From: Squalus acanthias
Lineage: Eukaryota
DNA length: 64,000 nt
Direction of reading: 5' to 3'
NCBI GenBank assembly: GCA_030390025.1
Contig: CM059432.1
Coordinates: forward strand, 45,572,001 to 45,636,000
Of this stretch, positions 25,512 through 52,716 are shown piece after piece. The position numbers and the translations under genes were made by a program. The stretch's first letter is position 1; each line of letters opens with the position of its first letter. A model generated the notes under the pieces. The model had not been told where the DNA came from. It did not search any database and saw only the letters and a list, made by a program, of their open reading frames with translations.

Positions 25512-27603
25512 GTGTCAAATCTTGCCAATGTCCTCCCGGTCCAACTCACCCCTCCCAGCGCTGACCCTGTGGACACTGGCAATGGGGCAGCCATCACCGA
25601 CCCTCCCCGCGTCTCCCTCCAGAATGTCCGTTCACTTGCGAACAAGGTCCTTGCCATCCATGAGCTTATCGTGGATGATTGCATCGAAATGGCCCTGACG
25701 GAAACTTGGTTGAGGGGTGATGACATCTTACCCTTAAATGAAGCCTCCCCGCCTGGCTATACTTTCCACCACTTGCCCTGTTCAGACCGCCGTGGTGGCG
25801 GTGTGGCTCTCATCACCAAATCACACCTTGGTCCGGCCCCCTACTCCTCTGGCACTTTCTCCTCCTTTGAGCATCTCCTCTTATTCCACCCCTCTCACCT
25901 CTCATTTAAAATTCTCGTTCTCTACTGCCCACCCAAGTACCATAAAATGTTTATTACCGAGATATCTTCACTATTCTCCTCCCTCAGCCTCTACACCGAA
26001 CGACTTCTCATCCTCGGTGATTTCAACCTCCATCTCAATTCATCATGCTCTCTCCTCTGAGTTCACTAGCCTCCTATCCTCCCTTAATCTCTCCCTCCAT
26101 GTAAACTCCCCAACCCATATTCACGGCCACCCCCTCGACCTTGCCATCTCTCGTGGCCGCGCTACTCCCATCTTGTCAATCGCAGATAAGGCCATTTCTG
26201 ACCACTTCCTCGTATCGCTCTCCACCCACATCCCTCTTCCACCACCCCCCTCCCCCAAACTCTACTTCCTTCTGTGTCCGCCCCTGGAGAAAAACTTTCT
26301 CCCAACTCTCTTACAACTGCACTTATGAAATCCCAACTGTCTAGCCTTTGGCCCTCCATTCACCATGACATTTCTGCAGCTACTGATCTGCTCAACCACA
26401 CCTTCACCACCACCTTTGATGCACTAGTCCCTATTAAAAGAATTATTATCTCTCACACTGGCCACTCCCCCTGGTACATCCCTCATCTCCACTTGCTTAA
26501 GTCCAAGGGACACAGACTTGAACGGATATGGCGGACAACTGGTTTAGCCATTCACCGCCAGATCTGGCTGGACCACATAAAGCATTATCGGGTCCTGCTC
26601 TCGTCTGCCAAAATTGCTCACTATTCCAGAATCATTCTGGAATGCAAAGATAAACCCCAGCTCCTATTCTCTACTGCTAACTGTCTTCTTAAACCCCTCT
26701 CCCCGTCTCCTCCACTCTCACCTCTGACAACAAGTGTGAGGAGCTCATGGACTTCTTTGTCTCTAAGATTGAGACCATCCGTTCCGCTGCCTCTGCCACT
26801 TCCCTTCCTTTTCCTAGCCCACCGGGTGAAACTTCCTCTAAGATTTCCCCCTGTCCTAGCCCTGAACTCATATCTTTCTCCAGTTTCTCTCCGATCTCCC
26901 CTCATGACCTCTCTGCGCTCATCTTGTCCATGAGATCCATTTCCTGTTCTCTCGACCCTATTCCCACCAAACTGCTGACCACCCAACTTCCTTTTCTGGC
27001 TCCCATGTTAGCTGACATTGTTAACGGTTCTCTCTCTTCAGGTACTGTCCCCGTCCTTCAAATCTGTCATCATCACCCCTCTCCTCAAAAAACCAACCCT
27101 TGACCTCTCTGTCCTTGCAAACAACCGCCCCATCTCCAACCTCCCTTTCCTCTCCAAAGTCCTTGAATGTGTTGTCACCTCCCAAATCCGTGCCCATCTT
27201 TCCCGCAATTCCACGTTTGAATCCTCCAATCAAGTTCCCGCCCTTGCCACAGTACCAAAACAGCTCTCATCAAAGTCACAAATGACATTCTTTGTGACTG
27301 TGACAAAGGTAAACTATCCCTCCTCGTCCTTCTTGACTTGTCTGCAGCCTTTGACATGGTTGACCACTCCAACCTTCTCCAATGCCTCTTCCCTGTCATC
27401 CAGCTGGGTGGGACTGCACTTGCCTGGTTCCATTCTTATCAATTTAATCATAGCCAGAGAATCACCTGCAATGGCTTCTCTTCCCGCTCCCGCATCATTA
27501 CCTCTGGTGTCCCCCAAGGATCTATCCTTGGCCCCCTCCTATTTCTCATCTACATGTTGCCTCTTGGCGACATCATCCAAAAACACAGCATCAGTTTCCA
27601 CAT
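25512..27603 (+). mobile_element. L2 LINE ORF2 5' part (APE endonuclease and RT up to FH|MYADD), frameshifted; 5' region probably extends to ~24800
   Basis: LQNVRSLANK, LTETWL, ILGDFNLH, LDLAISRG, ISDHF, RPISNLPFLSKVLE, LDLSAAFDMVDH, GVPQGSILGPLLFLIYMLPLG. Confidence 0.93.
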
Positions 27604-29612
27604 TGTAAAGTTTCTCAATTATCGCGATTCAAAATAACAAGATAGAAACAGATTCGTTTGATCAGTTTATTTAAACGAAATGCTGTCATGATTAAAAAGG
27701 ACACAGAAGCCTGTAAAATGGCCACCGCGCATCATGGCAGAAGCTTCCAGAATTACAGTGGGCAGACAAGATGGCGTTCGAATAAACATTTCAATATAAG
27801 ACGGGATCATACTCGATAAGCACTGATAAAGACAGGATGCAACCTGTTTGCATTTGTGACAATAGCAAAAGATATGAGTGCTGGAATCGTTTTCCATGCA
27901 CAAGTAAGGACCATTGTACTGGGCAATCGAAGGCCCATCCAGACACATCAATACACAAATACCCCCACGGCTCTACAATGAGAGAGCCATTCTCGGGTGA
28001 TTAAACAAGTATTCGGGGGCCCCCGAAACCATCAGGGAGACGATTCATACTATCCTGGCTGGGTCAACAATGGGGAAAACATTAACGGGTAGTTGGCCAG
28101 TTTCAGGTGCTACCGAAACCCGTTAAAGACAAGAATCGCCCCATGCTGGGAGTTTTGTGTGCCAATATTTCACAAAGGACAAACATTAAGATTTGGGCGG
28201 GAGATAAGGGAACACAGCACTATAACTATAGTGAACAAATGTCCATCGGTCTCTTATTCGCTCGAATCGTCTCCTATTCTCTTAGCTTGCTGCTGACTGC
28301 TGAAGCTCTTCTCTAGGGCTGGACTCTGTTGACTCTGGACTTTTAGCCGCACTGGACGGTTATTCGAATGTTGGGTGGAGCTCAATCGGAACGAGCCGCC
28401 TCGACAAAGGCAAGTGACCGGGTGCACCATCCCGAGAGTCGGTAAGAACATAAGAACATAAGAACATAAGAAATAGGAGCAGGAATAGGCCAATCGGCCC
28501 CTCGAGCTTTGCTCCGCCATTCAATAAGATCATGGCTGATCTGATCCTAACCGCCAATCTACTATCTACTATCACAGAACCATCTCCTGCATCTAACAGA
28601 ATTGCACACACGAAATAGGAGCAGAATCAGCCTACACGGTCCCTGGGCCCACTCCACTACCCACACGGCCATGACCGATCCGAACCTAGACTCATGTCCA
28701 AATTCCTGCCCGCTCCCCGTAACCCTTAATGCCCTTTACTTCTAGGAAACTGTCTATTTCTGTTTTAAATTTATTTAATGATGTAAACGGTGTCTGGACC
28801 CGAAGGCTCAACAAGACAAGACGAAATGACAAGAAAAGAAGAAGAATCCATGTGCCGCCGTGGTCAGTAAACCCCGACCGCGCCCGAAAATATAAGACCC
28901 ACTTCTTGAACTCTACAGGTTATTGCACTAACTCTTTGAATTCTACCGACAACTGGTGTCGGTACAGGAAGACTTTTCTTTGAGTTCTACAGCCGGGCCC
29001 GAGTTCTGTCGAGTTCTTCATGACAACGGGGAGCCCGGCCTGCTTGCCGCAGCAGCGAAGATAAACAAGTGGGGTACAGAGACCCATCCAAACACGTGAC
29101 AGTCAGGCGCTGCAGCGAAACGAGCCGAGTGCCTCACTTTAAAATTCTCCGAAGTATCACGAGTGGTGAGCATGTTCCCCGATCCTACAAATCTAGATGT
29201 AGTGTAGGTATTGATAGGGGAGGGTGGTTTTATTAAGGATAAAGTATAATGTGTTCCCCTTTTTACGATGTGCCGTGCGTTCTTCATTACCATAGACCAA
29301 GCTTTATGAATGTATGTATACTTGTACTCTCGTTAATTTGCACCTATGACATGTACTTCATGATTTTGGATGCTATGCAATAAAGATTTCCATTTCGTAC
29401 TATTCAACCGGGTCTATCTGAGTTTTCTCTGCATTACTGCTCTCGCACCTAAGTCCAGTGTTAGAACCGTAAGGGCGAGTGGGTCGAACCACTCACAGGT
29501 GCTTATTGCAACAAGGCTGGCCGGAGACCAGAGCAAGCAATAGTATTAGGCAACGAAGGCCTAACCTCGCACCAGCACCGTCTGCGATACAAGCACGCCG
29601 AAACCCCTTACA
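27604..29612 (+). repeat. 5' LTR (with a 341-bp CR1 tail insertion)
   Basis: TGTAAAG...CCCCTTACA; AATAAA at 29379-29384; direct repeat of 40349-42031. Confidence 0.97.
28446..28786 (-). mobile_element. CR1 3' UTR/tail fragment inserted in the 5' LTR
   Basis: (AAGAACAT)n tail; absent from the 3' LTR; GTAA duplicated at the junctions. Confidence 0.9.
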
Positions 29613-29616
29613 GAAA

Positions 29617-31441
29617 ATGGCGACCGCGGCAGGACACTGGCAGCGAGAGAGTAATGTTTTAGACCCTGGTGTGAATAGGCGAAATGTGATGGATGAGAGG
29701 GTAGCCGACTATGTGTTTGGGAAGGTTAACTTAACCAAAAGGTGGATAAGTGACCTACTGATGGATAAGCGTCCGCTAGACGCAGCCATCAAATGGACAG
29801 GCAGTAAAGAGCATAAGAAGTCGGTGGAGAAAGCGGTCTGGCTGATGTGCTACAAGAAGCAAGTCCAACTTTCGGACCAGGTCATTGTAGCACAGGCAGC
29901 TCAGATCAGGGATTTGGAAGTTGAGATGGAGGAAAAGATCACGGGAGGACAGAAACTCATTGCATCCTTGAATGCGTTACATCAGGAACGCCAGATAGTA
30001 GCCAACCACCATGAGGCTAAAATTGATTACCTAGAGTGTCAGGTCACGGAAGCGAAATTAAACGAGGGTAGGATTAGGGAACGGTGTGCCCGCCTAGCTA
30101 ACCAGATAAAAGCCCAGGAAGAAAGCTTGAAGGGAGTTAGGGCGGCATATAAGATGGCCCTCGAGGATAGGCATGAGGGAGCCGACCACAGTGTTTGCCA
30201 GAAGGAGATAGGGAACCTAAGAGAGGCCCTGAATAAGGCAAACGGCTTGCTGTTCCTCATCAGCCCGTCAGAAAACCAGCCACAGGTGGGTAGGGAATTC
30301 CCAAAATCCCTACCAGACAAAGCAGAGGAGGTATTTGCCACTGTGCCCTCCGCGCCACCCAGCTATTCGGCAACCTGGGTAAGGGAGGAAGTGGTGGAAA
30401 TAGAAAAGGAGGTTCCCGAGGTAGGACAATCCCCAGAGGTAGAGTCGAAACCGGGACCGATGTGTCCGCTCCGAGGTCACAAGAGAGGCCCGAATGCAGC
30501 CAATGGGGATGACGGGGATGTCCTGAACCAGCTTATATTGCCTCACAGCTCACACCAGCTGAGAGCAATGATTAGCCATGTACGGAAGCTGTCCGAGTCA
30601 GACGACCCTTCCGTACACTTTAGGGAGGTAGAACAGACCGCAGCAATTAATGGCTGCGACGATGTGGAAAAGACCAAAATGTTGCTGTTCTCGTTAGATA
30701 GCTCGATCCTTCAGTGTCTCTCAGACGAGAGCAAGAAGGGAAATAAAACCTATGAGGAGTTACGGGACGAGGTCCTAGAAGTGTTAGGGGCGGATGACGA
30801 AGGTCCGTTCGTCAGATTGAGTCAAATCATACAGATGGAGGGAGAACTCCCGAAGGTTTTCGCCGACAGGCTGTGGCCAGTATACCAGCGTAGCTGCCCA
30901 GGTGCGCCAGCGTGCACCTATCTGAACGGTGCCAGGTTTAACTCATTGGCTCAGGTGTTCAGTAGCCAACAGTTTGCCAGCCGTCAGGGAGCAGGCCAAA
31001 GCGTGGTTTGATCCCACTAACCCCGCCACAACAGAGGAGTCTGTCCTAAATCGACTCACCATAGGGTATCGTAACACTAGGAGCACGGGAGCGCGTCCCC
31101 TTAAGGGAAAGGTGCATGAGGCACGGCCCGCAGCCCCGGCTCAAAAGGAGTGGCATCAGGAGGGAAACCGCGCCCCACAAGCCAGTGGTGCTTGTTACGG
31201 GTGCGGGAAGACAGGTCACTGGCGTAAGAACTGTAGGAACCCCTGGAAGGACCCCAGGGATAAAAATCCCGCAGCCCGAACCCAAGCGCCTGTCTCTGAG
31301 AGAGGAGCTGGTGTGCCTATCCATCCCGATGCGATAGAATCAATGTTGGGAGCTATGCGGTCCCTTATGATTTCGCAAGGAAGGGTGGCAGTCGCTACCG
31401 GCCTCACAGATGCCACAAAATCGTCCACCAGTACCCAATGA
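29617..31441 (+). pseudogene. gag: Gag: N-terminal coiled coil, PSAPPSY late domain, capsid-like region, CCHC knuckle; one frameshift at ~30928
   Basis: ORFs 29479-31011 and 30929-31441; CYGCGKTGHWRKNC; candidate starts at ATG 29617 or 29689. Confidence 0.9.
29618..29635 (+). promoter_or_regulatory. Primer binding site, tRNA-Arg(UCG)
   Basis: TGGCGACCGCGGCAGGAC is complementary to the vertebrate tRNA-Arg(UCG) 3' end ...GTCCTGCCGCGGTCG-CCA (tRNA sequence recalled from memory). Confidence 0.85.
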
Positions 31442-34400
31442 CTAGAGCCCGCGTAGCCCGTTTACCTGTGTCCGCTCAGCTATGATGCGTGGAAAAGACC
31501 CCTGGTTGAGATGGAGGTAGAGAAGCAGAAGGGTAGTTATTTGTTGGACACGGGAGCTTCATGCACCGTGATTCATACGGATAGCCCCTTTGACTCACTG
31601 CTGTCTACCAAGGTCCCATACACATTAGCGGGGTTCACGGGAAAAGAGCAGGCTGGCGCGTTCTCCATTCCGCTCTCCATTCATTTAGGAGCACTCCACA
31701 CCACATGGAAGTGCATACTGATGAAATGGCAAGAGTGGGGTGGCAGAGGTATCCTCGGATCGGATCTCCTATCGGAACACGTGATCCTCGTGGACCTTAG
31801 GAATCACTGTCTCTGGGGAGCCAAGGGTGGGAAAGGCAAGGTAGTTGTAATCCCAGGGAAGGAAGGTAAAGGGGCCCTGTGTACCATGAAGCCATCCGGA
31901 GGTTACGACCTCGGGCTTATGGTCGCGGATGTCCCAACGGACATGCAAGCGTACGTGTCAGATAATATGCACGCGTTTGCAACCCACAAGCACGATTGTG
32001 GGAGGGTTACCGGGTTTGAGGTCAGCATAGACGGGGACCCCATGACCCGGCCCCAAAAGCAGTATAACTTCCCCAAAGAAGCAGAACCCGACATGGAGAC
32101 AGCAATGTCCTCATTGGTGCAGCAGGGCGTGTTGAGGCCGATAGCCACACACGTGAACTCCCCATTATGGCCGGTGAGGAAGCCGGATAATTCGTGGAGG
32201 GCCACGGTGGACTACAGAGTCCTTAACAGTAACATCCCCGCCTGCGCGCCCACAGTAGCAGCAGTTGCTGACCAATAGGGAGTATCCCAGCGTCCGCGAC
32301 CACGTTCACGGTGCTGGATATCTCGAACGGTTTTTGGTCCATCCCGCTGCGGCGAGAGGACCAGTACAAGTTTGCCTTTACTTTTAAAGGACAACAGTAC
32401 ACATGGAACTGTTTGCCACAGGGTTTCCACAACAGCCCCAGTATTTTCCATCAGTGTATGGCAGGAAGTTTAAAGGAGTTTAGTCAGCCCAATCAGATAG
32501 TGCAATACGTGGATGATTTGCTCCTGTTCACGGACTCAAGGGAAGAGCATGGACCACTGCTAGCCGAGTTATTGGAGCTGCTAGCGAGAAAGGGTTTTAA
32601 AGTGAACCCTAAGAAAGCACGTATCGGTCAGCAGGAAGTAAAATTCCTGGGTCTGACCATTCGCGCTGGGGAAAGAGCCATAGATAAGGCTAGGAGGGAG
32701 TCGGTGCAGGAGTTACCGATTCCCAACACCATAACGGGTGTGAGGTCCTTTCTGGGACTGACCGGTTACTGTAGAGACTTCATCGAGGACTATGCGGCCA
32801 CAGCAGCTCCGCTGCTCCGACTCCTCCATAAGGGAGTGGAGTGGTCTTGGGACGAGGGTTGCCAGGCAGCATTCGAGAAGTTAAAAAGGGATTTGCAGAC
32901 CGCGCCAGCTTTAGGGGCCATAGATGGGGGGAAGGAGTTTTTCCTGGAGGTAGCTGCCAGCGGAGACAGCTTGAGCGCCGTGCTGCTCCAAGAGCGTCAC
33001 GGCAAGCTGAGGCCGGTTGTCTATTCGACCAGGGTGTTAACGGATGTGGAGAGGAGTTTTTCCAACTGCGAAAGGCATCTTTTAGCCACGCATTGGGCTG
33101 TGAAAAGATCAGCGATCTTCACAGGGCTCTCTCCCATCACTCTCCTCACCCATCACACACCAACTAAGATGCTTCTAGATGGGAGGATTAAGGATGGGAC
33201 CGTAAGCAGCGCTCTCATTGCGCGCTGGACCCTTCTCCTTTCCCAGATGGATCTTAGAGTTAAAGGTCTTTGCGAGCCCAGGCTTGCGGCCAACTTGGTA
33301 TACCCCGGAACAGCCCACCGGTGTTCGGTAGAAGGGGTGTGGGAGGTCAACATAGGTTTGCGGGCCGGGATACATCCCACAGGTCGCGAGATTTATGTTG
33401 ATGGTTCCAGCACAGTGTCCGCTGGCGAACGACTCACAGGGTGTGGAGTTTATGACCCTGCGGCAAACCTTGCCCTGGCGATTAAACTCCCCAGCACCAT
33501 GAGCGCGCAGCAGGCTGAGCTGTCTGCGGTGGTGTACGTAGTGACCCACCCAGAGATCTTCCCAACCACATACACGATTTGTTCGGACAGTATGTTTACG
33601 TGCAATTCGTGTACGGAATACCTGGCCATTTGGTCCCGCCGTGGATACACCTCCGCGGACGGGCGACCTTTAACGGTGAAGCCCTTGCTGGAAAAGATCC
33701 TAGCAGCAGTAGGGGAGGAAGGGGAGATTTTCATCCATAAGGTGAAAGCTCCCTCCTCCACAGAGCCCCGCGGGGAGGGCAACCAGCAGGCGGATGCGCT
33801 AGCCAGGGAGGGTGCCCGTAACGGCATTTTCTGGGACCCCTATGGACCCGGACCCGTGGCAGCAATCCAAGGCAGGGAAGGGAATCCCGGGAACACCAGG
33901 GTAGCACTGCCCCTAGACCTTAAGGCCGTCCAGAACCAGGATCCCGCGCTAAAAGCAGTTCTCAGAACGATTACTGAGGGCAAGCAGGTAGAGGGCCTGT
34001 ACAGTACGGCAACCCTCTCCGTTAAAGAAGGCATGCTGTTCCGCGAGGAACAGTGGGTTGTGCCGCAGCAGCACAGGAGGGAATTCCTACAGTTGGCTCA
34101 TGAGGGGCCGGGGGCAGGACACCCCGGGCCGGAGGTTACCTGGCAACGGGTAGAGCAGGCGGGATGGTGGCCGGGACTCAGGGAGCAGGTCCGCGAGTTC
34201 TGTGCAAACTGTCTCGTGTGCGCTGCAAACAACCCAGACCCCCAGAAAAGGAAAGTGCACATGGGGCACATCAGGAGGGTGGAGGGACCGTGGCAGTCGA
34301 TACAGATCGATTACATAGGGCCCCTGCCCACCACCCAGGGAGGCTACAAATACTGCCTCGTCTTGGTGGATGTGTTTTCCAAATGTGTAGAAGCCTTCCC

Positions 34401-34621
34401 CTGTAGAACAGCTACGGCGCTGGGTACTGCTAAGATCTTGGTCCAGGAAGTGTTCTCGCGGTGGGGACTCCCCCGTTTCGTGGAGTCAGACCAAGGGAGT
34501 CATTTCACCGGCCAGGTGATGCAGAACACCCTCATGCTTTTGGGCATTGAAGGGAAGTGGCACGTAGCGCACAATCCCCAGTCATCCAGGATTGTTGAAC
34601 GCATGAACCGGACCCTCAAGC
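31442..34621 (+). pseudogene. pol: Pol: protease, RT, degenerate RNase H (tether), RNase H, integrase core; stop at 31454, frameshift at ~32272
   Basis: LLDTGAS; PQKQY, LDISNGFWS, LPQGFHNSP, YVDD; YVDGSS/AQQAEL/CSDS/GNQQAD; H..H..CANCLVC, IQIDYIGP, ESDQGSHF, VERMNRTLK. Confidence 0.96.
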
Positions 34622-36265
34622 TGTAAGGGATTCTGACCCTGCGTGTCTCGCAGCCTGTGAGATTCACGCGGCTCTGTGCAGCCTGTATGTCAGTGCGGGT
34701 TTAAGCCTTGTTGCCTGTTCTGGTCTCCAGCCAGTCTGGGAGCACTAGACACACCTGTGAGTGGTTCGAATCACTCGCCCTTACGGTTCTAGACACTGGA
34801 CTTAGATGCGAGAGCAGTAATGGAGATGAAACTCATGTAGACTCGGTTGAATGGTACGAAATGGAAAATCTTTATTGCATGATATTTAAGATTATGAAAT
34901 ACATGTCATAAGCACAGATTAATGACAGTACAATCTTACAAGCAGTTATATAGCTGATCCTAGGGAAACGAGGAACGAACGACACACCGTAAATAGGGGC
35001 ACACATTACAAGTATCCTTAATACTTAAACCCTCCCCTATCAATATCTGTCCTAACTAGATTCGTAGGATTTCGAGACTCATGCTCACCACTCGTGATAA
35101 CTCGGAGAAATTCCAAATAGCTGATCGGATGTTTTTCACCGCAGCACCCACGTGTCGGTCAGGAGATCTCCTGGTCCCACTTGTTTACTTGCTTCTGCTC
35201 CGGCTAGCAGGCTGGACCGTCTGCTGTGATGAAGATCTGTGTTGGTTGGTTTAACAGGTACTTTTCCGAGCAGGTTTCACAGCTCAGTCAATATCATCGA
35301 TGATGAACCGTTCTTGCAAGTTCAAAGAAGTCTTCCTGGCAAGGAAAACTTGGCTATTCGACCTACAGGCGCGGTCGGGATTTACTGACCGTGGCGATGA
35401 GTATGGTCTTCCTCTCTTCTCATCTCATCTCATCTCATCTCATCTCGGGCCTTTGGTTCCGCTGCCAGTTACCAACATAGGTCTTCGTTACGCGACACGA
35501 GGTAGATCCGAACGGATCAGAAAGTTCAACAGTCTTTTTCAAAAAGGCACCAGGAAAACAGGAACCAGACTACGAGTCAAAACGCAGGAGCAGCCATGAG
35601 GTTACGAGTCGATCGGATAAGAGAAATAAGAGAGAGATGGACGGTTGGAGCTTGTAATTATAGTACAAAATCTTCCGTTTCCCGCCCAACCTTAATGTCC
35701 TTTCTTTTGTTTGGGTCTGGCGCTCAAATGTCTTGTATGGGTGATCTCCGTTCTTAATGGGTTTCGGGGCTACTCGTAAATGTCTGAGTACCTGTTAATA
35801 TTTCTCCCATTGTTAAATCGGTCGGTGTTCTCCCTGGAGGGGTTTTGGGGCTTCCAAGTGTTTTGTATAACTACCTGCTAATGGCTCTCTCATCGTAGAG
35901 TCGTTGGGATTTTACATATTAATGTCTTTTGGATGGGCCCCTGATTACTCGGTACAATAGCTTTCATTCGTACCTGGGAGACCGATTTCAGTATTTATGT
36001 GTATACTGTAAACCCATAATGTCTCGTGTATTATCTTCACTGTGCTGAATCTTAATCGATCTTGCACAAATGTTTATTGGAACGCCATCTTGTCTGCCTG
36101 TCGAAAAGTCTGGAATGTTCTGTCACGAGGTGCGGCGGCCATTTTACAGGCTGCTTGTGTCTACTTTGAGAAACCTGGCAGCATTCTGCTGAAATAAAAG
36201 CTGTTTGAACGAAACTCTGTGTTTTCTCCTTATTAATAAAATCGCGATATATTGCGAATTCTACA
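34622..36265 (-). mobile_element. Solo LTR (1644 bp, antisense) inserted in the integrase; 1450-3098-type subfamily
   Basis: Reverse complement reads TGTAGAATTCGC...CCCTTACA; AAGC/AAGG 4-bp flanks; removing it restores RTLK-EKLRKE. Confidence 0.95.
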
Positions 36266-36670
36266 AAGGAGAAGCTGAGGAAAGAGACTATGAACTCGCC
36301 CCAAAAATGGGCGGAGGTTCTGCCTCTAGTCCTCATGGGAATCCGGGCCAGCCAGTCGAAGAGTACGGGGTATTCCCCGTACGAGGTGATGACTGGGAGG
36401 ATCATGCGAACCCCCACCCATGTACTAGCCCCGGTGCTCACTGAGGATCAGCTCCAAGAGGTGAAACGGGACAAGTTTGTCCAGACCCTCTTGGAGCGCC
36501 TGAAGCAGGTTTACGAGCAGGCGGCTGGGAACATGGGAAGACAGCATCAGGGCAATCGCCTGTTGCTGGAACCCTGTAAGAAGCAGGAGTGGGAAGTCGG
36601 AGATCAGGTCATGGTTAGGAACTATGCCAGAGTAGGGAGTTTGGAACCACTGTATATGGGACCCTACAGT
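36266..36670 (+). pseudogene. pol: Integrase C-terminal part up to the GPY motif
   Basis: KWAEVLPLVLMGIRAS..STGYSPYEVMTGR..WEVGDQVMVR..LEPLYMGPYS. Confidence 0.9.
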
Positions 36671-37338
36671 CAGATGAGGAAGAGCTCGAGGAGCTCGACC
36701 AAGGTAGTGACCCGATCGGAGAGGTGCTGGGGTCAGAGGACGAAAGTTTCGTCCTCGACTCAAGCTCAGGGGAGATAGGGGCTGCGAGTGGAGATCCACA
36801 CAGGGTGGAATCGGAAACTGCAGATCCCGAGCCCAGGGGGGCGGAGCTAGGGGAGACGGAGCCAGTGGCTGTGGTAGGACCATAGGCCGTGACGGTGGAA
36901 GTCTCGGTACCCGGTCCGTCGGCCCTGGAAGTCTTGCCCTTGGGGGAGGTAGGGATTGCGAGTGGAGGACCACATACTGGGCCAAGTAGGGTGGAGCCAG
37001 AAACTGCAAATCCCGAGTTCAGGGGGGCGGAGCCAGGGGAGACGGAGCCAGCGGCTGTGGTAGGACCACAGGCCGTGACGGTGGAAGTCTTGGTTCCTGG
37101 TCCGTCGGCCCTGGAAATCTTGCCCAAAGTAGCCCTCCGTAGGTCAAGTCGGACACCCCAGCCCAGGAAGTCGTGGTCAAGTCCCCCGTACACCCCAAGG
37201 CGTAAGTTCAAGGTCAAGGCAGCCAGGGAGATCCCAGTCCCAGCGCAGCGGCGACAGGCTGCGGCAGATCAAAGGAAGGGGTCAGTGCCCTCCCACCACT
37301 GGGAAAAGCTCGTGGCAGCCTTCGCAGAATTTAAGTAG
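36670..37338 (+). pseudogene. Acidic/Pro-rich reading frame with an internal ~60-aa duplication and a basic tail (integrase extension or accessory ORF)
   Basis: SDEEELEELDQG...; repeat units 36769-36942 and 36943-37128; LRRSSRTPQPRK; one internal TAG; ends EFK*. Confidence 0.6.
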
Positions 37339-37599
37339 GCTGCCCTGGGAATGGGCAGCGCTGTACAGATAAGTTTATAAGTTTAAGTTTAAGTTTTGTA
37401 AGTTTGGTAAGTTTGCAGTTTAATTTTAACAGAAAATGGTAAAATGATGGGAGTTAGTGATAGGAATAGTTAAAGTCTATCCAGCATACATGTCGTTATA
37501 CGTGAGACGAGGTCAAGGGACCCGCTCACCCTTCACAAAAGCCAGAGACTCTTGGGAGGCTGGCTACACCATTTTATCTGATCACAGGAACCAGGAAAG

Positions 37600-39950
37600 A
37601 TGGAAAGGATTCTGATAGTGCTCGCAACGATCGGATATGGATTGGCCTATCGGGGCCTCACCAAGGATGTCGTTGTGTTTGGCTGCTCCGGGGACACGGG
37701 CCCCATCGCGACGGATGGGACCGGGGAGCGAAAGGCTGAGGAGACCGCCACTTATTTCCACAAGGGAAGGTGGCCGGGATGGCTGGGAACGAATTCAACG
37801 GAATACTCAAGCGCATCCGGATTTGCCTACAAAGAGACTTCTTTACTGTGCCCCAGAGTGAGGATCATTGCACCCAGAATCAGCGTCACCGTCGGCAAAA
37901 GGATTTGTTTGACATGCAATGGGAAGGTCCCATTGAGCCGATGGTGGTGGTTACGGAAATTAAGCAAGACTATGAGAAATTCCTCGGTTGAGTGGGAGCG
38001 ATTGGGTAACAACACCCATCGGACAATTACGGGGACTAACGGACAATTGAAAGTCTGTTGGGACAAATGGTGGGAACCGGATGAGGGAATATATGTTTGT
38101 ATGTGGGGATCGAAGTACGTTTGCCCCAAGGGTATATCCATATTTTTCGTACACCAGTGGCAGGATAGCGGAAAAGGGATGAGGTGGGATGTCAGCACCA
38201 AGGGGTGCGGAGCTGCATTCTCCCCGATCCCGGTAAACGCCACTGAACTCATCACGCGCCCACGCAAGGCTCTGCCCACGATTCCGGTGGTTTTGGCTCA
38301 GAAGGAAGGGTGCCCTAAAACCACTAAGGGGCCCGGGAATGGTTTGGTACTGGTCCCAACAGACCAGATACTATTTCAAGGGGTACATTACGCGGTGGCT
38401 TCGGTGATTCTAAATCTCACCGAGGTGCGTTTACCAGAGTGGTGCCCCAAAGAGACGGAACAATTGTACCAGGTCCTGTTGACAAACATGTTCAGACAAT
38501 TCTACGAGTTTGATTTTGCGGAGATTGACAAAACAAGCTTGTACACCACACCACACGAAGTTTTGGGTCAGGTGGGGAGACAAAGAAGGGGTATTGTGAA
38601 CGATATGTTCACTGCCTTTAATACAGGAACATCTGTGGTCAACGCTCTAGACAACGTGGAGCTGCAGACCCAGATCAATGGTTTAAAAACACAATTAAAA
38701 AGCATCCTCACAAGCGAAAACAAGGTAGTAGGGTCTGAGTTACATGAGGACCAGGCCATGACACTACACTTAAAGGAGATTATAGCAGAGCTGGAGAAGC
38801 ATGCGAGAACGGTAAATGCCCTGATCAGGGAAGATCGGAATGCATCCGATCAAGCTGCGCAGAACGAGGTGTGCGTACTATACGGGGCGTGGTTACTGGG
38901 CGAGGGCTGCAGTAATTTGGAGGATTTAAAATAAGGTTTGGTCCCGTCCTGGATAAGTAACAAACACCTGCAGGCGCTCCACCCTTTTCAGAACGCATTA
39001 AGCCCGTGCCAGCTCAGGCTAGCCTCAGAGGCATACCCAGTCCCCGTGGACTGTGGACGGTCAAATCATACCATCATGGGTATAGTACTACGTATGCCGG
39101 TGTTGGGCGACACGGCAAAGCCCACCCCGGTGTACCGGGTGGAGAACATTGGTGTCATTCAGGGGGAGCCCACATTCGCTACGCAGCAGTCCCACCTTAC
39201 GTCATCCGCTGGGAGCAAACGATGACAGGTACCGACCTATCGGGTTGTCGTGGCCGGGGAGCACACATCATACTGTGTCCCCAGCACTTGAATGCCTTTT
39301 TACCACCACAATGCGGGTTCAGAACGGCTGGCGCCAAGGGAATGAATTGCACCATGGAAGCAATGACACAAGATCATGTGCCTCCGCAGGTGGCATACAT
39401 AGGGGGTGGAACATATTGCGTTACCACTGCAGCGCAACACTACCAGCATGGAAACCACAGCCGGTGTCCGGTGAGTGACAGCAGTTTCTGTTTTAAACCC
39501 AGAGTTGAAGTTCAAGTGGCACAACAGCGAATTGTCCCGATCCCTGAACCATCCACTGTTCACCTTACAGTAAAAGAGAATTTCACCGACTTGCAGCGAT
39601 TCGTCGCGCATTTTGGATACATCATTCCCCCTCTCCCTGAACACCTCACCAAGCTTTTGAAAGCCGTCGCGGTGTCACAGAAACATTTTTACACCCTGGA
39701 ACAAAAGACTGTCGAGATAGGGACAGAAATTTTGGACATAGTAATCCCACCGTGGTGGGATCTGTTCACTAATATTGAAGTTCCTTCATGGATCAGGATA
39801 GCCTCCCACATTTTGGTAGTGTGCCAAGTTATAATTGTAGTGTACCTATTGGTCGTGCACTGCAGAAGAGGCAAACGCCTCACAAAGCAGGAGAACACAG
39901 GGGAGTGGAGAGAACGTTACGTGCGCGTGAATGAAGAAAGTGCCGCATAA
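37600..39950 (+). pseudogene. env: Envelope glycoprotein (~780 aa): signal peptide, Ig-like domain, F-like class I fusogen, TM and tail; stop at 38932, frameshift at ~39165
   Basis: MERILIVLATIGYGLA signal; RQRR|GIVND cleavage; heptad region; Cys-rich region; ILVVCQVIIVVYLLVV TM; acceptor-like TTTTATCTGATCACAG ending at 37587. Confidence 0.9.
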
Positions 39951-40336
39951 ACGGCCAGGATGACGCCGCTCCATTTTTACCATGTGTGTTTTCGTAATTG
40001 ATTGTTAGTAATGAATATGTGTAACTAAGTTTGGAACTTTGTATTTTTAAAATGGTTGTTTGATTATTTTTCTCTTGTATAATAAAAACATGCATATACA
40101 GGTGGTGCGAGAGGCATCGGCCTGTTGCACCTGGAAGGCGTATACGCGATGTAAGTTTAAAGGCAATACTGCCTACAATTTGTCCAAGTTTAAACAATGT
40201 AATTTTCCCTGGGAAATGAGGACGGCATGGAGGCCATAGATAGTTCAAGTTAAGGGAGTGTTTGGATGTGGAGAATCGGGATAATTTTTGCTCACCACCA
40301 TTTTTAATTGATACGATAAGCGGAGTTATTCGCATC

Positions 40337-40348
40337 AACAGGAGGGAC
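40337..40348 (+). promoter_or_regulatory. Short purine tract (PPT) before the 3' LTR
   Basis: AACAGGAGGGAC immediately precedes TGTAAAG. Confidence 0.7.
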
Positions 40349-42031
40349 TGTAAAGTTTCGCAATTATCGCGATTCAAAATAACAAGATAGAAACAGATTC
40401 GTTTGATCAGTTTATTTAAACAAAATGCTGTCATGATTAAAAAGGACACAGAAGCCTGTAAAATGGCCACCGCGCATCGTGGCAGAAGCTTCCAGAATTA
40501 CAGTGGGCAGACAAGATGGCGTTCGAATAAACATTTCAATATAAGACGGGATCATACTCGATAAGCACTGATAAAGACAGGATGCAACCTGTTTGCATTT
40601 GTGACAATAGCAAAAGATATGAGTGCTGGAATCGTTTTCCATGCACAAGTAAGGTCCATTGTACTGGGCAATCGAAGGCCCATCCAGACACATCAATACA
40701 CAAATACCCCCACGGCTCTACAATGAGAGAGACATCGACGGGTGATTAAACAAGTATTCGGGGGCCCCCAAAACCAGTCAGGGAGATGATTCATACAATC
40801 CTGGCTGGGTCAGCAATGGGGAAAACATTAACGGGTAGTTGGCCAGTTTCAGGTGCTACCGAAACCCGTTAAAGACAAGAATCGCCCCATGCTGGGAGTT
40901 TTGAGCGCCAATATTTCACAAAGGACAAACATTAAGATTTAGGCGGGAGATAAGGGAACACAGCACTATAACTATAGTGAACAAATGTCCATCGGTCTCT
41001 TATTCGCTCGAATCGTCTCCTATTCTCTTAGCTTGCTGCTGACTGCTGAAGCTCTTCTCTAGGGCTGGACTCTGTTGACTCTGGACTTTTAGCCGCACTG
41101 GATGGTTATTCGAATGTTGGGTGGAGCTCAATCGGAACGAGCCGCCTCGACAAAGGCAAGTGACCGGGTGCACCATCCCGAGAGTCGGTAAACGGTGTCT
41201 GGACCCGAAGGCCCAACAAGACAAGACGAAATGACAAGAAAAGAAGAAGAATCCATGTGCCGCCGCGGTCAGTAAACCCCGACCGCGCCCGAAAATATAA
41301 GACCCACTTCTTGAACTCTACAGGTTATTGCACGAACCGGTCAAAGACTCTTCTTTGAATTCTACCGACAACTGGTGTCGGTACAGGAAGACTTTTCTTT
41401 GAGTTCTACAGCCGGGCCCGAGTTCTGTCGAGTTCTTCATGACAACGGGGAGCCCAGCCTGCTTGCCGCAGCAGCGAAGATAAACAAGTGGGGTACAGAG
41501 ACCCCTCCAAACACGTGACAGTCAGGCGCTGCAGCGAAACGAGCCGAGTGCCTCACTTTAAAATTCTCCGAAGTATCACGAGTGGTGAGCATGTTCCCCG
41601 ATCCTACAAATGTAGATGTAGTGTAGGTATTGATAGGGGAGGGTGGTTTTATTAAGGATAAAGTATAATGTGTTCCCGTTTTTACGATGTGCCGTGCGTT
41701 CTTCATTACCATAGACCAAGCTTTATGAATGTATGTATACTTGTACTCTCGTTAATTTGCGCCTATGACATGTACTTCATGATTTTGGACGCTATGCAAT
41801 AAAGATTTCCATTTCGTACTATTCAACCGGGTCTATCTGAGTTTTCTCTGCATTACTGCTCTCGCACCTAAGTCCAGTGTTAGAACCGTAAGGGCGAGTG
41901 GGTCGAACCACTCACAGGTGCTTATTGCAACAAGGCTGGCCGGAGACCAGAGCAAGCAATAGTATTAGGCAACGAAGGCCTAACCTCGCACCAACACCGT
42001 CTGCGATACAAGCACACCGAAACCCCTTACA
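40349..42031 (+). repeat. 3' LTR (1683 bp)
   Basis: TG...CA ends; AATAAA at 41798-41803; TATA-like AATATAA at ~41293. Confidence 0.97.
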
Positions 42032-43012
42032 ACATGTACGCTGACGACACCCAGCTCTACCTGACTACCACTTCTCTCGACCCCTCCACGGTGTCTAAAT
42101 TGTCTGACTGCTTGTCCGACATCCAGTTCTGGATGAGCAGAAATTTTCTCCAATTAAATATTGGGAAGACGGAAGCCATTGTTTTCGGTCCCCGCCACAA
42201 ACTCCGTTCCCTAGCCACTGACTCCATCCCTCTCCCTAACATCTGTCTGAGGCTGAACCACACTGTTTGCAACCTTGGTTTCATATTTGACCCTGAAATG
42301 AGCTTCTTCTGACCACTTATCCGCAGCATAACTAAAAATGCCTATTTCCACCTCCGTAACATCACCCGTCTCCGTCCTTGCCTCAGCTCATCCGTTGCTG
42401 AAACCCTTATCCATGCCTTTGTTACCTCTAGACTTGACTATTCCAACGCACTTCTGGCTGGCCTCCCACATTCTACCCTACGTAAACTTGAGGTGATCCA
42501 AAACTCGGCTGCCCGTGTCCTAACTCGCCCCAAGTCCCGTTTACCCATCACCCCTGTGCTCGCTGACCTACATTGGCTGCCATTTAAGTAACGCCTCGAT
42601 TTCAAAATTCTCATCCTTGTTTTCAAATCCCTCCATGGCCTCACCCCTCCCTATCTCTGTAATCTCCTTCAGCCCTACAACCCCCCGAGATATCTGCGCT
42701 CCTCTAATTCTGCCCTATTGAGCATCCCTGATTATAATCGCTCAACCATTGGTGGCCGTGCCTTCTGTTGCCTAGGCCCCAAGCTCTGGAATTCCCTGCC
42801 TAAACCTCTCTGCCTCTCTACCTCTCTTTCCTCCTTTAAGATGCTCCTGAAAATCTACCTCTTTGACCAAGCTTTTGGTCACCTGCCCTAATTTCTCCTT
42901 ATGTGGCTCGGTGTCAAATTTTTTGTCTTATAATACTCCTGTGAAGTGCCTTGGGGCGTTTTACTATGTTAAAGGCGCTATATAAATACAAGTTGTTGTT
43001 GTTGTTGTTGTT
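42032..43012 (+). mobile_element. L2 LINE 3' part (continuation of 25512-27603)
   Basis: MYADDTQLY..WMSRNFLQLNIGKTE..LIHAFVTSRLDYSN; tail GGCGCTATATAAATACAA(GTT)n. Confidence 0.95.
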
Positions 43013-48389: not shown

Positions 48390-49506
48390 TCACAGCCACA
48401 TGGCTAATTGTGCTTGTAGTTCACCAACCTTATTCACCACACTTCGTGCATTTACATACATGCATTCAAAACCCATTTTTGAATTTTTTGTAGTCTTTCT
48501 TAGTCTGCTCCTATATAATATGGTACTTCTACCTCCTCTAGTACTATCATCTCTAGTACTATCCAACACAATCACTCTTTTATGCACCTTATTCCTCTTT
48601 TCTACTCCTATATGCTGGTGCCCATCCCCCTGCCAAGCTAGTTTAAATCCTCCCCAACAGCACTAACAAACCTCCCTGTGAGAATATTGGTCCCGGCTCT
48701 GTTGAGGTGTAACCCGTCCAGCTTGTACAGGTCCCACCTTCCCCAGAAACGGTCCCAATGCCTCAGGAATCTAAAGCCCTCCCCCCTGCACCATCTCTCC
48801 AGCCACGCATTCATCTGTTCTATCCTCCTATTCCTGTACTCACTAGCACGTGGCAACGGTAGTAATCCGGAGATTACTACCTTTGAGGTCCTGCTTTTTA
48901 ATCTCTTTCCTAGCTCCCTAAACTCTGCCTGCAGGACCTCATCCCTCTTTCTGCCTATGTCATTGGTACCGTTATGGACAATGACCTCTGGCTGTTCACC
49001 CTCCACCCTCAGAGTGTCCTGCAGCTGCTCAGTGACATCCCTGACCCTGGCACCAGGGAGGCAACATACCATCCTGGAGTCACGTCTACGGCCGCAGAAA
49101 CGCCTGTTTGCTCCTCTAACTATTGAATCCCCTACCACTATTGCTCTTCCACTCTTTTTCCTCCCCCCCTGTGCAGCTGAGCCACCCGTGGTGCTGTGGA
49201 CTTGACTTTGGCTGCTCTCCCCAGAGGAACCATTGCCCTCACCAGTACACAGAACAGAATACTGGTTGGAGAGCACAATGTACTCCGGGGACTCCTGCAC
49301 ACCTGCCTGGTCCTCCTCTTCTGTCTGGCGGTTGCCCATTCTCTCTCTGCCTGCACACTCTTAAGCTGCGGGGTGACCACATCCTGAAATGTGCTATCCA
49401 CGTAACGCTCAGCCTTGCGGATGCACCGCAGTGAGTCCAGCCACCACTCAAGCTCCGAAACCCGGAGCTCGAGTTGCTGTAGCTGGCGACACTTCCTGCA
49501 CATGTA
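48390..49506 (-). mobile_element. CR1 5' part: ORF1 (half Zn finger, leucine zipper, SGNH esterase; frameshift at ~49320) and start of ORF2 APE
   Basis: CRKCRQLQQLELRVSELE; VVGDSIVRG, CLPGARV, HNGTNDIG, DGLHLN; ECMYVNARSVVNKVGEL. Confidence 0.92.
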
Positions 49507-52500
49507 CCGCTCCTCCCGCTCTCGGCGCTCTTTATACTGCTCCTCCTGCTCTCGGCGCTCTTTATACCACTCCTCCCACTCTCGGCGCTCTTTATACCAC
49601 TCCTCCCACTCTCGGCGCTCTTTATACCGCTCCTCCCGCTCTCGGCACTCTTTATACCGCTCCTCCCACTCTCGGCACTCTTTATACCACTCCTCCCACT
49701 CTCGGCGCTCTTTATACCACTCCTCCCACTCTCGGCGCTCTTTATACCACTCCTCCCACTCTCGGCGCTCTTTATACCACTCCTCCCACTCTCGGCACTC
49801 TTTATACCGCTCCTCCCGCTCTCGGCGCTCTTTATACCACTCCTGCCGCTCTCGGCGCTCTTTATACCGCTCCTCCCGCTCTCGGCGCTCTTTATACCGC
49901 TCCTCCCACTCTCGGCGCTCTTTATACCACTCCTGCCGCTCTCGGCACTCTTTATACCGCTGCTCCTGCTCTCGGCACTCTTTATACCGCTCCTCCCACT
50001 CTCGGCACTCTTTATACCGCTCCTCCCACTCTCGGCACTCTTTATACTGCTCCTCCCGCTCTCGGTGCTCTTTATACCGCTCCTCCCACTCTCGGCGCTC
50101 TTTATACCGCTCCTCCCACTCTCGCCGCTCTTTATACCGCTCCTCCCACTCTCAGCGCTCTTTATACCGCTCCTCCTGCACTCGGCGCTCTTTATACCGC
50201 TCCTCCCACTCTCGGCGCTCTTTATACCGCTCCTCCCGATCTCGGCGCTCTTTATACCGCTCCTCCCGCTCTCGGCACTCTTTGTGCCGCTCCTCCCACT
50301 CTCGGCACTCTTTGTGCCGCTCCTCCCACTCTCGGCACTCTTTGTGCCGCTCCTCCCGCTTTCGGCGCTCTTTATACCGCTCCTCCCACTCTCGGCACTC
50401 TTTATACCGCTCCTCCCACTCTCGGCGCTCTTTATACGGCTCCTCCCGCTCTCGGCGCTCTTTATACGGCTCCTCCCGCTCTCGGCGCTCTTTGTGCCGC
50501 TCCTCCCGCTCTCGGTGCTCTTTATACCGCTCCTCCCACTCTCGGCGCTCTTTATACCGCTCCTCCCGCTCTCGGTGCTCTTTATACCGCTCCTCCCACT
50601 CTCGGCGCTCTTTATACCGCTCCTCCCGCTCTCGGTGCTCTTTATACGGCTCCTCCCGCTCTCGGCACTCTTTATACTGCTCCTCCCGCTCTCGGCGCTC
50701 TTTATACCGCTCCTCCCGCTCTCGGCACTCTTTATACCGCTCCTCCCACTCTCGGCACTCTTTATACCGCTCCTCCCGCTTTCGGCGCTCTTTATACCAC
50801 TCCTCCCACTCTCGGCACTCTTTATACCGCTCCTCCCACTCTCGGCACTCTTTATACCGCTCCTCCCACTCTCGGCGCTCTTTATACCGCTCCTCCCACT
50901 CTCAGCGCTCTTTATACCACTCCTCCCACTCTCGGCACTCTTTATACCGCTCCTCCCGCTCTCGGCACTCTTTATACCACTCCTCCCACTCTCGGCACTC
51001 TTTATACTGCTCCTCCCACTCTCGGCGCTCTTTATACCGCTCCTCCCACTCTCGGCACTCTTTATACCGCTCCTCCCACTCTTGGCGCTCTTTATACGGC
51101 TCCTCCCGCTCTCGGCACTCTTTGTGCCGCTCCTCCCGCTCTCGGTGCTCTTTATACTGCTCCTCCCGCTCTCGGTGCTCTTTATACCGCTCCTCCCGCT
51201 CTCGGTGCTCTTTATACCGCTCCTCCCGCTCTCGGTGCTCTTTATACCGCTCCTCCCACTCTCGGCGCTCTTTATACTGCTCCTCCCGCTCTCGGCACTC
51301 TTTATACTGCTCCTCCCGCTCTCGGCGCTCTTTATACCGCTCCTCCCGCTTTCGGCGCTCTTTATACCACTCCTCCCACTCTCGGCACTCTTTATACCGC
51401 TGCTCCTGCTCTCGGCACTCTTTATACCGCTCCTCCCGCTCTCGGCGCTCTTTATACCGCTCTTCCCGCTCTCGGCACTCTTTATACCACTCCTCCCACT
51501 CTCGGCACTCTTTATACTGCTCCTCCCGCTCTCGGCACTCTTTATACTGCTCCTCCCGCTCTCGGCGCTCTTTATACGGCTCCTCCCGCTCTCGGCGCTC
51601 TTTATACCGCTCCTCCCACTCTCGGCACTCTTTATACCGCTCCTCCCACTCTTGGCGCTCTTTATACGGCTCCTCCCGCTCTCGGCGCTCTTTGTGCCGC
51701 TCCTCCCGCTCTCGGTGCTCTTTATACCGCTCCTCCCGCTCTCGGTGCTCTTTATACCGCTCCTCCCGCTCTCGGTGCTCTTTATACCGCTCCTCCCACT
51801 CTCGGCGCTCTTTATACTGCTCCTCCCGCTCTCGGCACTCTTTATACTGCTCCTCCCGCTCTCGGCGCTCTTTATACCGCTCCTCCCGCTTTCGGCGCTC
51901 TTTATACCACTCCTCCCACTCTCGGCACTCTTTATACCGCTGCTCCTGCTCTCGGCGCTCTTTATACCACTCCTCCCGCTCTCGGCACTCTTTATACCGC
52001 TCCTCCCGCTCTCGGCACTCTTTATACCGCAGCTCCCGCTCTCGGCACTCTTTATACCGCTGCTCCCGCTCTCGGCACTCTTTATACCGCTCCTCCCACT
52101 CTCGGCGCTCTTTATACCGCTGCTCCCGCTCTCGGCACTCTTTATACCGCTCCTCCCGCTCTCGGCACTCTTTATACCGCAGCTCCCGCTCTCGGCACTC
52201 TTTATACCGCTGCTCCCGCTCTCGGCACTCTTTATACGGCTCCTCCCACTCTCGGCGCTCTTTATACCGCTCCTCCCACTCTCGGCGCTCTTTATACCGC
52301 TCCTCCCACTCTCGGCGCTCTTTATACCGCTCCTCCCACTCTCGGCGCTCTTTATACCGCTCCTCCCACTCTCGGCGCTCTTTATACCGCTCCTCCTGCT
52401 CTCGGCGCTCTTTATACCACTCCTCCCACTCTCGGCGCTCTTTATACGGCTCCTCCCACTCTCGGCGCTCTTTATACCGCTCCTCCCGCTCTCGGCGCTC

Positions 52501-52716
52501 TTTATACGGCTCCTCCCACTCTCGGCGCTCTTTATACCGCTCCTCCCACTCTCGGCGCTCTTTATACGGCTCCTCCCGCTCTCGGCGCTCTTTGTGCCGC
52601 TGCTCCCGCTCTCGGCGCTCTTTATACCGTTCCACCCGATCTCAGCGCTCTTTGGGCCGCTGTTCCTGCTCTCGGCGCTCTTTGTGCTGCTGCTCCCGAT
52701 CTCGGCGCTCTTTATT
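49501..52716. repeat. 30-bp tandem array, ~107 units, consensus TTTATACCGCTCCTCCC(A/G)CTCTCGGC(G/A)CTC
   Basis: Units stay in exact 30-bp register throughout; the most degenerate units are at the 52.6-52.7 kb end. Confidence 0.99.

Follow-up and report, generated by a model that had tools for sequence, protein, structure and literature searches.

What kind of membrane fusion protein does the envelope gene (env) of an endogenous retrovirus (ERV) in the shark Squalus acanthias encode, and to which retroviral lineage does that virus belong? The locus lies in a stretch of 64,000 nucleotides of contig CM059432.1 (assembly GCA_030390025.1, positions 45,572,001 to 45,636,000, forward strand). This stretch is hereafter called the window, and nucleotide positions are counted from its first letter. 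An initial annotation, made from the sequence alone, had read the env product as a fusogen resembling the fusion protein F of paramyxo- and pneumoviruses rather than the surface (SU) and transmembrane (TM) subunits of orthoretroviruses. Our analysis indicates, with good probability, that this gene is the broken env of a young, many-copy ERV, likely of the snakehead retrovirus (SnRV)-like group (clade Huo), and that it encoded a predicted F-type fusogen with a likely N-terminal immunoglobulin (Ig)-like domain. The likely lineage and the Ig-like module are added here, the link between retroelement Envs and paramyxovirus F itself being already in print.

The motif set and the domain order in the initial annotation are real, and some of its boundaries had to be moved. 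The env reading frame is open from 37582, with an ATG at 37600, so that the gene starts 670 nt upstream of the position previously given (38270), and about 237 residues precede the F2-like part. The GLVLVP motif is present at 38341, and the furin motif RQRR was found as described, with the cut before 38590 and GIVNDMFTAF following it; RQRR is also found at the cleavage site in 16 of 19 other env loci, with RQRM in one and no match in two. The F2-like segment, put at about 105 aa, is shorter, about 87-93 aa: it begins at a Cys (38311, aa 238) that is conserved in 14 of 14 rows, and the structural match to F starts from aa 244-245. The subunit downstream of the cleavage site, estimated at about 450 aa, has 453 aa in open paralogues. 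It ends in a TM helix (39798-39854) and the predicted YxxPhi tail, the motif being YVRV in seven and YMRV in two of the nine open env copies. Both reported lesions of this copy, the in-frame stop and the frameshift, were seen, and a regular-expression search over all three env pieces bore out the absence of CX6CC and of any motif resembling the immunosuppressive domain (ISD). The peptide following RQRR is assigned as the likely fusion peptide by its position; its hydrophobicity is mild (Kyte-Doolittle 0.72 over 20 aa), and it is modeled at a per-residue confidence (pLDDT) below 50. In heptad repeat A, 14 of 28 a/d positions are hydrophobic, compared with 15 of 72 positions elsewhere. Seven F1 cysteines are kept in 21-24 of 23-27 aligned rows. 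The putative F2-F1 disulfide partners Cys282 and Cys425 are kept in 17 of 18 and 22 of 24 rows, respectively.

To examine the fold, a naturally open env paralogue was modeled from an alignment of 40 family members. Foldseek comparison of the model to the PDB gave as the top match the F protein of human parainfluenza virus 3 (hPIV3; E 2.5e-10), among 233 matches at E<=0.001. In the VIA alignment, which was seeded by the Foldseek matches, residues 245-649 of the model fall on residues 26-431 of F (Z 13.1, 329 residues, root-mean-square deviation (rmsd) 8.0), and all 50 listed rows are paramyxo/pneumovirus F proteins that are 6-16% identical to this Env. An unbiased structure search of 48,161 chains yielded F proteins in the best nine rows (Z 8.6-12.2), followed by foamy virus Env (Z 8.1, 273-275 residues aligned), with unrelated rows consisting of helical bundles at Z<=6.4. 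Matches in BFVD include lispivirus and fish filovirus glycoproteins, both ranked high, proteins of baculovirus and abalone herpesvirus, and feline foamy virus (FFV) Env; in ESM Atlas features, env reaches 0.91 to the Baculo_F and Fusion_gly clusters. The best rows are thus F proteins and not the gamma- or beta-type TM named as the alternative in the initial annotation. No orthoretroviral TM is among the rows listed by Foldseek, VIA or the unbiased search, an absence that excludes nothing, and a weak profile match to a HERV-K chain (E 0.014) is confined to the membrane-proximal end. For the Cys-rich region, foamy Env 8rm1 comes first among the profile matches in the PDB (E 0.051). In the predicted model, both subunits contribute to the three-domain core characteristic of class Ib fusogens, with an alignment running from aa 245 in F2 to aa 650 in domain II, and the furin site is followed by the mildly hydrophobic fusion peptide, heptad repeat A, heptad repeat B and the TM helix. 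The structure searches, the ESM Atlas features and the conserved F1 cysteines indicate that the F1-like order and Cys spacing noticed at the outset go beyond chance. We predict that env encodes an F-type (class Ib) fusion protein whose residues 245-650 adopt the paramyxovirus F fold.

Several results weigh against this assignment. Although pLDDT is 80-95 across most of the beta domains, the full model has a mean pLDDT of 63 and a predicted TM-score (pTM) of 0.45. The rmsd to F proteins is high (5-37 A), and TM-scores normalized to the whole query do not exceed about 0.3, as would be expected of a monomer model that has long helices and an unmatched N-terminal third. The Pfam check proposed with the initial annotation did not bear it out: Fusion_gly was not reported for the window pieces, for four open paralogues, or among the 25 listed of the 41 families found for the 40 alignment members. 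The closest approach is a divergent env relative in the same genome, at 12.8 bits (E 0.036), the gathering threshold of PF00523 being 29.8 bits. F chains are also absent from the 22 rows at E<=10 obtained with the 40-sequence env profile against the PDB, and a single-sequence search of PDB sequences with env returned no F chain.

The other copies of the gene suggest that this Env was functional while the element spread. A search of the 3.7-Gb genome gave 4,878 candidates in all, and the 40 that were scored all match env at 90-100% identity; the ERV accordingly has at least 40 genomic copies. Among 19 other loci that were fetched, nine have an open env of 783 aa. Nei-Gojobori (NG86) estimates for the 36 pairs of these nine copies average dN 0.014 and dS 0.074. 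Comparison of four divergent copies with two open copies apiece gives a dN/dS of 0.08-0.18 over the whole gene, 0.04-0.15 in the F core and, for the N-terminal module, 0.12-0.44. Overall, env dN/dS comes to 0.08-0.19. These values point to purifying selection among env copies and to a working Env during spread; weighing on the other side, they come from simple NG86 with non-independent pairs and without correction for transitions or CpG, which lowers them.

The N-terminal third, absent from the account in the initial annotation, is likely an Ig-like module. Residues 17-235 contain an Ig-type pattern (Cys103, Trp114-116 and DEGIYVC). The isolated piece matches Pfam Ig_3 at E 0.014 (16.4 bits against a cut-off of 30), and antibody V domains take the first four places in a PDB sequence search (E 0.5-1.1). 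When the model of the module was compared in VIA, all 50 rows were Ig domains (Z 5.8-6.9, 76-90 residues, rmsd 2.3-3.6). The Ig-like pattern recurs in a divergent env family of the same genome, and a distant env homologue has a V-set match (E 0.045). An ESM Atlas search with the module gave 0.84, a lead only, and a homologue search with it found three close proteins only. On the negative side, the module was modeled at a mean pLDDT of 55, with the other four models at 36-45; its best Z of 6.9 lies inside the range that the tool calls common; the best Foldseek E is 0.019; and hhalign among the four env N-terminal groups detected no significant match (probability <=2%). On balance, we consider it probable that the module is an Ig-like domain. 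The env family is modular, with members that have and members that lack the N-terminal module: the F2 part starts at aa 20-23 in three of 11 proteins checked (two of them from eel) and at aa 154-238 in the other eight. Among the further F-type env families of this genome, one has an open frame of 784 aa, and the N-terminal modules of these families retain an Ig-like pattern but are very diverged.

Because the provirus encodes no attachment gene, we lean, by a modest degree, toward the module being the receptor-binding part of Env. It sits where class Ib fusogens carry N-terminal receptor modules (PMC11468914) and is far more divergent between env families than the F core. The strongest competing explanation, which we rate as less probable although it deserves serious attention, is that the module does not bind a receptor and is instead a shield, a trimerization or folding aid, an immune decoy, or not an Ig domain, with the fold and lineage of the element unchanged. 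The modest model and Z score would fit this explanation, as would the existence of env relatives that lack the module and the purifying selection noted above, with no sign of fast change; the position of the module and the lack of a separate attachment gene in the provirus speak for receptor binding.

As to the lineage, matching positions were counted by hand in 193 columns of reverse transcriptase (RT) against published rows. The RT of this element shares 93 positions with SnRV, 74 with walleye dermal sarcoma virus (WDSV), 73 with FFV, 71 with murine leukemia virus (MuLV) and 70 with the lokiretrovirus Loki-Lca, these five named rows being counted to within about 2. At a site where all 24 published loki RT rows read PFG, this RT and SnRV both read LPQG. 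Among Pol proteins, elements of frogs and coelacanth come nearest (44-47% identity), and SnRV-like ERVs (clade Huo) have been reported from chimaera, coelacanth and amphibians (PMC4422223, PMC6001957, PMC4977317). It is probable, in our estimate, that the retrovirus belongs to this SnRV-like group. Some considerations temper the assignment. The count involves a single SnRV row. A quick-method RT tree placed the element with retrovirus-like Pols only; this tree has 46 rows (the 45 best of 101 Pol matches and one genomic RT) and lacks named SnRV, loki, foamy and ERV-L rows, while shark foamy-like ERV (FLERV) rows and ERV-L/S stand outside the RT comparison with its five named references. Finally, SnRV Env is not among the 50 BFVD rows shown, an absence that excludes nothing.

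An improbable alternative places the element among the foamy-like ERVs of sharks (FLERVs) or the foamy viruses of cartilaginous fish (clade Tu), in which case the class Ib fold would simply be the known fold of foamy Env. Foamy Env is of class Ib (PMC11468914), it follows directly after the F chains in the unbiased search and gives the best profile match of the Cys-rich region, and the integrase of prototype foamy virus (PFV) is the best PDB match for the integrase of this element. In addition, shark and frog FLERVs cluster together (PMC5512871), and the env family described here is likewise common to sharks and frogs; the 4-nt target-site duplication also fits a foamy-like ERV. However, the recognized foamy marks, namely, Gag without a Cys-His knuckle, GGGTG where the polypurine tract (PPT) meets the long terminal repeat (LTR), and a primer that is mostly tRNA-Lys (PMC5210030), are not those of this provirus. 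Its Gag has a CCHC knuckle, its PPT-LTR border reads GGGAC|TG with no GGGTG, and its primer-binding site (PBS) corresponds to tRNA-Arg and not to the Lys, Thr or Asn tRNAs of fish foamy-like ERVs. Moreover, pol lies in frame behind the gag TGA, no large insertion separates F2 from F1 in this env, and the RT count to FFV is 73 of 193, in a comparison to which the CmiFLERV and XtrFLERV rows do not belong.

The assignment of the element to lokiretroviruses, as the first one from cartilaginous fish and with the F-like Env as a published trait of that group, appears very improbable. For what follows, we take CGIN1 and NYNRIN to be the same protein. The Pol of the element has a tether and RNase H, and the Pol relatives are named NYNRIN-like, as expected from the CGIN1-like integrase of lokiretroviruses. 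Loki Env resembles PF00523 (PMC7947760), and, by eye, the loki Env rows share with this env the GP..G start of F2, IP.(Y/W) after heptad repeat A, and NVG. An Env related to Mononegavirales F together with a dual RNase H, both traits of lokiretroviruses, were indeed found here, whereas the hand count and the PFG/LPQG comparison point to a position of the RT outside the loki clade. Lokiretrovirus identity was dropped after this comparison with the published RT rows (70 vs 93 of 193). Furthermore, in the published loki screen, none of six chondrichthyan genomes was positive, and two of those species carry the present env family; and F2 follows the signal peptide, with no extra domain, in 13 of the 14 loki Env starts shown, the 14th being a fragment. 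Recent capture of env from a negative-strand RNA virus infecting fish, be it a paramyxovirus, a pneumovirus or another, is the least probable explanation of all, even if the best solved-structure matches are paramyxo/pneumovirus F and lispivirus and fish filovirus glycoproteins rank high in BFVD: the identity to F is 6-16%, the env family extends over sharks, skate, coelacanth, frogs and eel with distant members about 17-38% identical, and in four divergent families env and related pol genes occur together. The stock of solved structures over-represents paramyxoviruses, and an Env that lacks the foamy insertion is expected to score better against a bare F.

Returning to the SnRV-like ERV with an F-type Env, the shared ancestry with negative-strand RNA viruses that was originally proposed stands as far as the F-like fold is concerned. 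No special link between retroviruses and paramyxoviruses and no direction of transfer follow from it, because the fold is wider than Mononegavirales and includes baculovirus F, aquatic herpesviruses and errantiviruses. Shared ancestry with F has already been published for lokiretrovirus Env (PMC7947760), foamy Env (PMC11468914) and errantivirus Env (bioRxiv 2023.10.26.564294), and kinship of retroelement Envs with F is more widely in print (PMC12583693). Epsilonretrovirus Env has been predicted to differ from the gamma and beta types (PMC3758190, a review), and a survey of anamniote Envs covers, in the portion consulted, gamma- and beta-type only. Among the BFVD matches, rows 19 and 37 are the Envs of walleye epidermal hyperplasia virus 1 (WEHV1; E 7e-9) and WDSV (E 7e-5), with low TM-scores, hinting that epsilonretrovirus Env may also be F-type.

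The env family is not confined to Squalus. When 20 of 48 matches were looked up, the named homologues came from skate, sawshark, Mustelus, Chiloscyllium, Heterodontus, Scyliorhinus, coelacanth, Xenopus, Pelodytes and eel. Within the Squalus genome, further F-type env families (loci L039-L053) show about 22-38% identity in the matched stretches, and four divergent ones stand behind related pol genes (35-63% identity, matched stretches). Shark gene models named Niban 1-like, ZFP2-like and fbxo15 (P0004, P0006, P0038) contain pieces of this env and are likely annotation chimeras or read-through products of proviral insertions.

The env gene is part of an LTR provirus (27604-42031; Table 1) that was inserted within a remnant of a LINE reverse transcriptase (RVT_1 E 0.0009 on the right flank), the right copy of the target-site duplication, ACAT, lying at 42032-42035 directly after the 3' LTR. 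The Kimura two-parameter (K2P) distance between the LTRs is 0.016 over 1668 columns, which a rate of 2.2e-9 per site per year converts to about 3.7 My, and the shark rate assumed in PMC4422223 to 37 My. The PBS begins 5 nt past the 5' LTR, and the first gag ATG (29617) lies partly within it. The gag stop codon TGA precedes CTAG and is in frame with pol (31439-31445), and pol opens in frame directly after the gag TGA in nine of 11 other pol-bearing loci, making stop-codon read-through the likely mode of expression at this junction. The TGA-CTAG context is a known read-through signal; gammaretroviruses use TAG at the corresponding stop. In this copy, pol is broken by stops, a frameshift, an LTR insertion and a deletion near 36670. 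Behind the integrase, pol has an acidic, Pro-rich extension of about 290 aa (36270-37338) that has no Pfam match and contains an internal repeat of about 180 nt (36769-36939 and 36943-37125). Besides the inverted LTR in the integrase region, a piece of an inverted LTR is present within the 3' LTR of another copy (L025), so nested insertion recurs.

Table 1. Features of the provirus and of its env gene (window coordinates)
Feature	Position	Strand	Remarks
Target-site duplication ACAT, left copy	27600..27603		
5' LTR (TG...CA)	27604..29612	+	337-nt repeat insertion at 28446-28782
gag	29617..31441	+	one CCHC zinc knuckle (zf-CCHC E 6e-4); frameshift near 31000
Primer-binding site	29618..29635	+	18 nt, complementary to the CCA-bearing 3' end of host tRNA-Arg(TCG)
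pol	31442..37338	+	protease, RT, tether, RNase H, integrase, acidic/Pro-rich tail
Inverted solo LTR of a related (sister) family	34622..36265	-	in integrase; ~70-75% identical; flanks AAGC/AAGG
env gene	37600..39950	+	783 aa in open paralogues; stop 38932-38934 and frameshift near 39165 in this copy
Putative signal peptide	37600..37647	+	hydrophobic N-terminus, best 19-aa window starts 37609; inferred
N-terminal module, likely Ig-like domain then Pro/Thr-rich linker	37648..38310	+	Cys at 37906, 38098; D-x-G-x-Y-x-C motif
F2-equivalent segment	38311..38589	+	ends in furin motif RQRR (38578-38589); structure match, conserved Cys
Putative fusion peptide and long heptad repeat A	38590..38931	+	model helices 333-376, 383-444
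Cys-rich beta-sheet domains, equivalents of F1 domains I and II	38935..39560	+	two reading frames in this copy
Heptad repeat B	39639..39743	+	model helix 681-715; a/d positions 9/11 hydrophobic
TM helix and short tail with YxxPhi (YVRV 39918-39929)	39798..39950	+	Kyte-Doolittle, 19-aa window (KD19), 2.6
Short purine-rich tract before 3' LTR	40340..40348	+	sequence
3' LTR (TG...CA)	40349..42031	+	

The copies differ in gene content. The pol content could be read for 16 of the 19 loci. Eleven have an integrase upstream of env; in four, gag is joined to the pol tail and the enzymes are missing, and a longer stretch revealed one more locus of this kind. Four of the nine open env copies belong to the pol-less kind. 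In this pol-less subfamily (L002, L010, L011, L019, L020), the first pol residues are kept after the gag TGA, and env is open in four of the five; in L020, the frame then crosses a diverged copy of a gag coiled-coil segment (36% over 81 aa, E 7e-12) before it reaches the acidic Pro-rich pol tail. The pol-less copies are likely non-autonomous elements that keep Env and the read-through product. Elsewhere in the window, positions 49505-52715 hold a minisatellite in which a 30-nt unit is repeated 107 times (92% matches). At other loci of the genome (L063-L065), tRNA-Arg(TCG) and tRNA-Ser(GCT) genes form long tandem arrays that repeat about every 1.6 kb, and this pattern has 433 genome matches.

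The class Ib fusogen biology underlying the proposed mechanism is in part that outlined in PMC11468914. By analogy with F proteins, the signal peptide would be removed, Env would trimerize, and furin would cut after RQRR. The N-terminal subunit, composed of the Ig module and F2, would stay joined to the 453-aa F1-like subunit, likely via a Cys282-Cys425 bond. The Ig module would likely bind a cell-surface receptor, occupying the place that S1 has in the coronavirus spike; the fusion peptide would then insert, and heptad repeats A and B would zip into a six-helix bundle, while the YxxPhi tail, again as in F proteins, may drive trafficking. Germ-line spread of the virus likely went through reinfection requiring Env, and the pol-less copies with an open env were likely carried along by pol-bearing copies.

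These findings provide a predicted fold for an env family that is present in sharks, skates, coelacanth, frogs and eel and has carried the annotation 'uncharacterized' until now; its members with and without the N-terminal module illustrate the addition of a likely receptor-binding part to a bare F core. Wang and Han (PMC7947760) left open four scenarios for how retroviral Env arose; if a third deep lineage, besides loki and foamy viruses, has an F-type Env, this would favor those that place such an Env in the common ancestor. Tentatively, and with somewhat less than even confidence, we propose that the F-type Env is ancestral in retroviruses, being retained in loki, foamy, SnRV-like and possibly walleye epsilonretroviruses, that the gamma/beta SU-TM came later, and that the SnRV-like viruses of sharks and frogs added a host-derived, exchangeable Ig receptor module, arriving at a spike-like layout.

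Among known systems, SnRV and the SnRV-like ERVs (clade Huo; CmiERV lineage I) have the closest named RT, and the group is known from cartilaginous fish, coelacanth and amphibians (PMC6001957, PMC4422223); a literature search met no description of the Env fold, and no F-type or Ig-bearing Env, for these ERVs, but Calcraft et al. 2024 may in part anticipate the present findings. Lokiretrovirus Env (PMC7947760) shares with the present one the signal peptide, RxxR site, fusion peptide, coiled coil, TM helix and kinship with F; it differs in being about 570 aa long (one row), without the approximately 220 extra N-terminal residues seen here, and is associated with a different type of RT. Foamy Env (PMC11468914; PDB 8rm0, 8rm1) has the same class Ib core (Z 8.1), and the gamma-type CX6CC/ISD motif is absent here; however, the receptor-binding domain of foamy Env forms an insertion lying between the two subunits, whereas the extra module is N-terminal in this Env, and the Gag, PBS, PPT border and RT of the element are not foamy-type. 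The F proteins of paramyxo- and pneumoviruses (hPIV3 1ztm, Newcastle disease virus (NDV) 3maw, respiratory syncytial virus (RSV), human metapneumovirus (hMPV)) have the same order of F2, furin site, fusion peptide, heptad repeat A, domains I-II, heptad repeat B and TM helix and the same predicted fold (Z <=13.1), from which this Env departs by its 6-16% identity, extra N-terminal module, weaker fusion peptide and lack of a partner attachment gene. The F-type Env of errantiviruses, baculovirus F and the S2 part of coronavirus spike belong to the same fold superfamily (bioRxiv 2023.10.26.564294; PMC12583693). Their carriers are invertebrate Ty3/gypsy elements or non-retroviral, and the sections of these sources used here describe no Ig-like N-terminal module for them; the coronavirus spike, too, bears N-terminal receptor modules on an F core.

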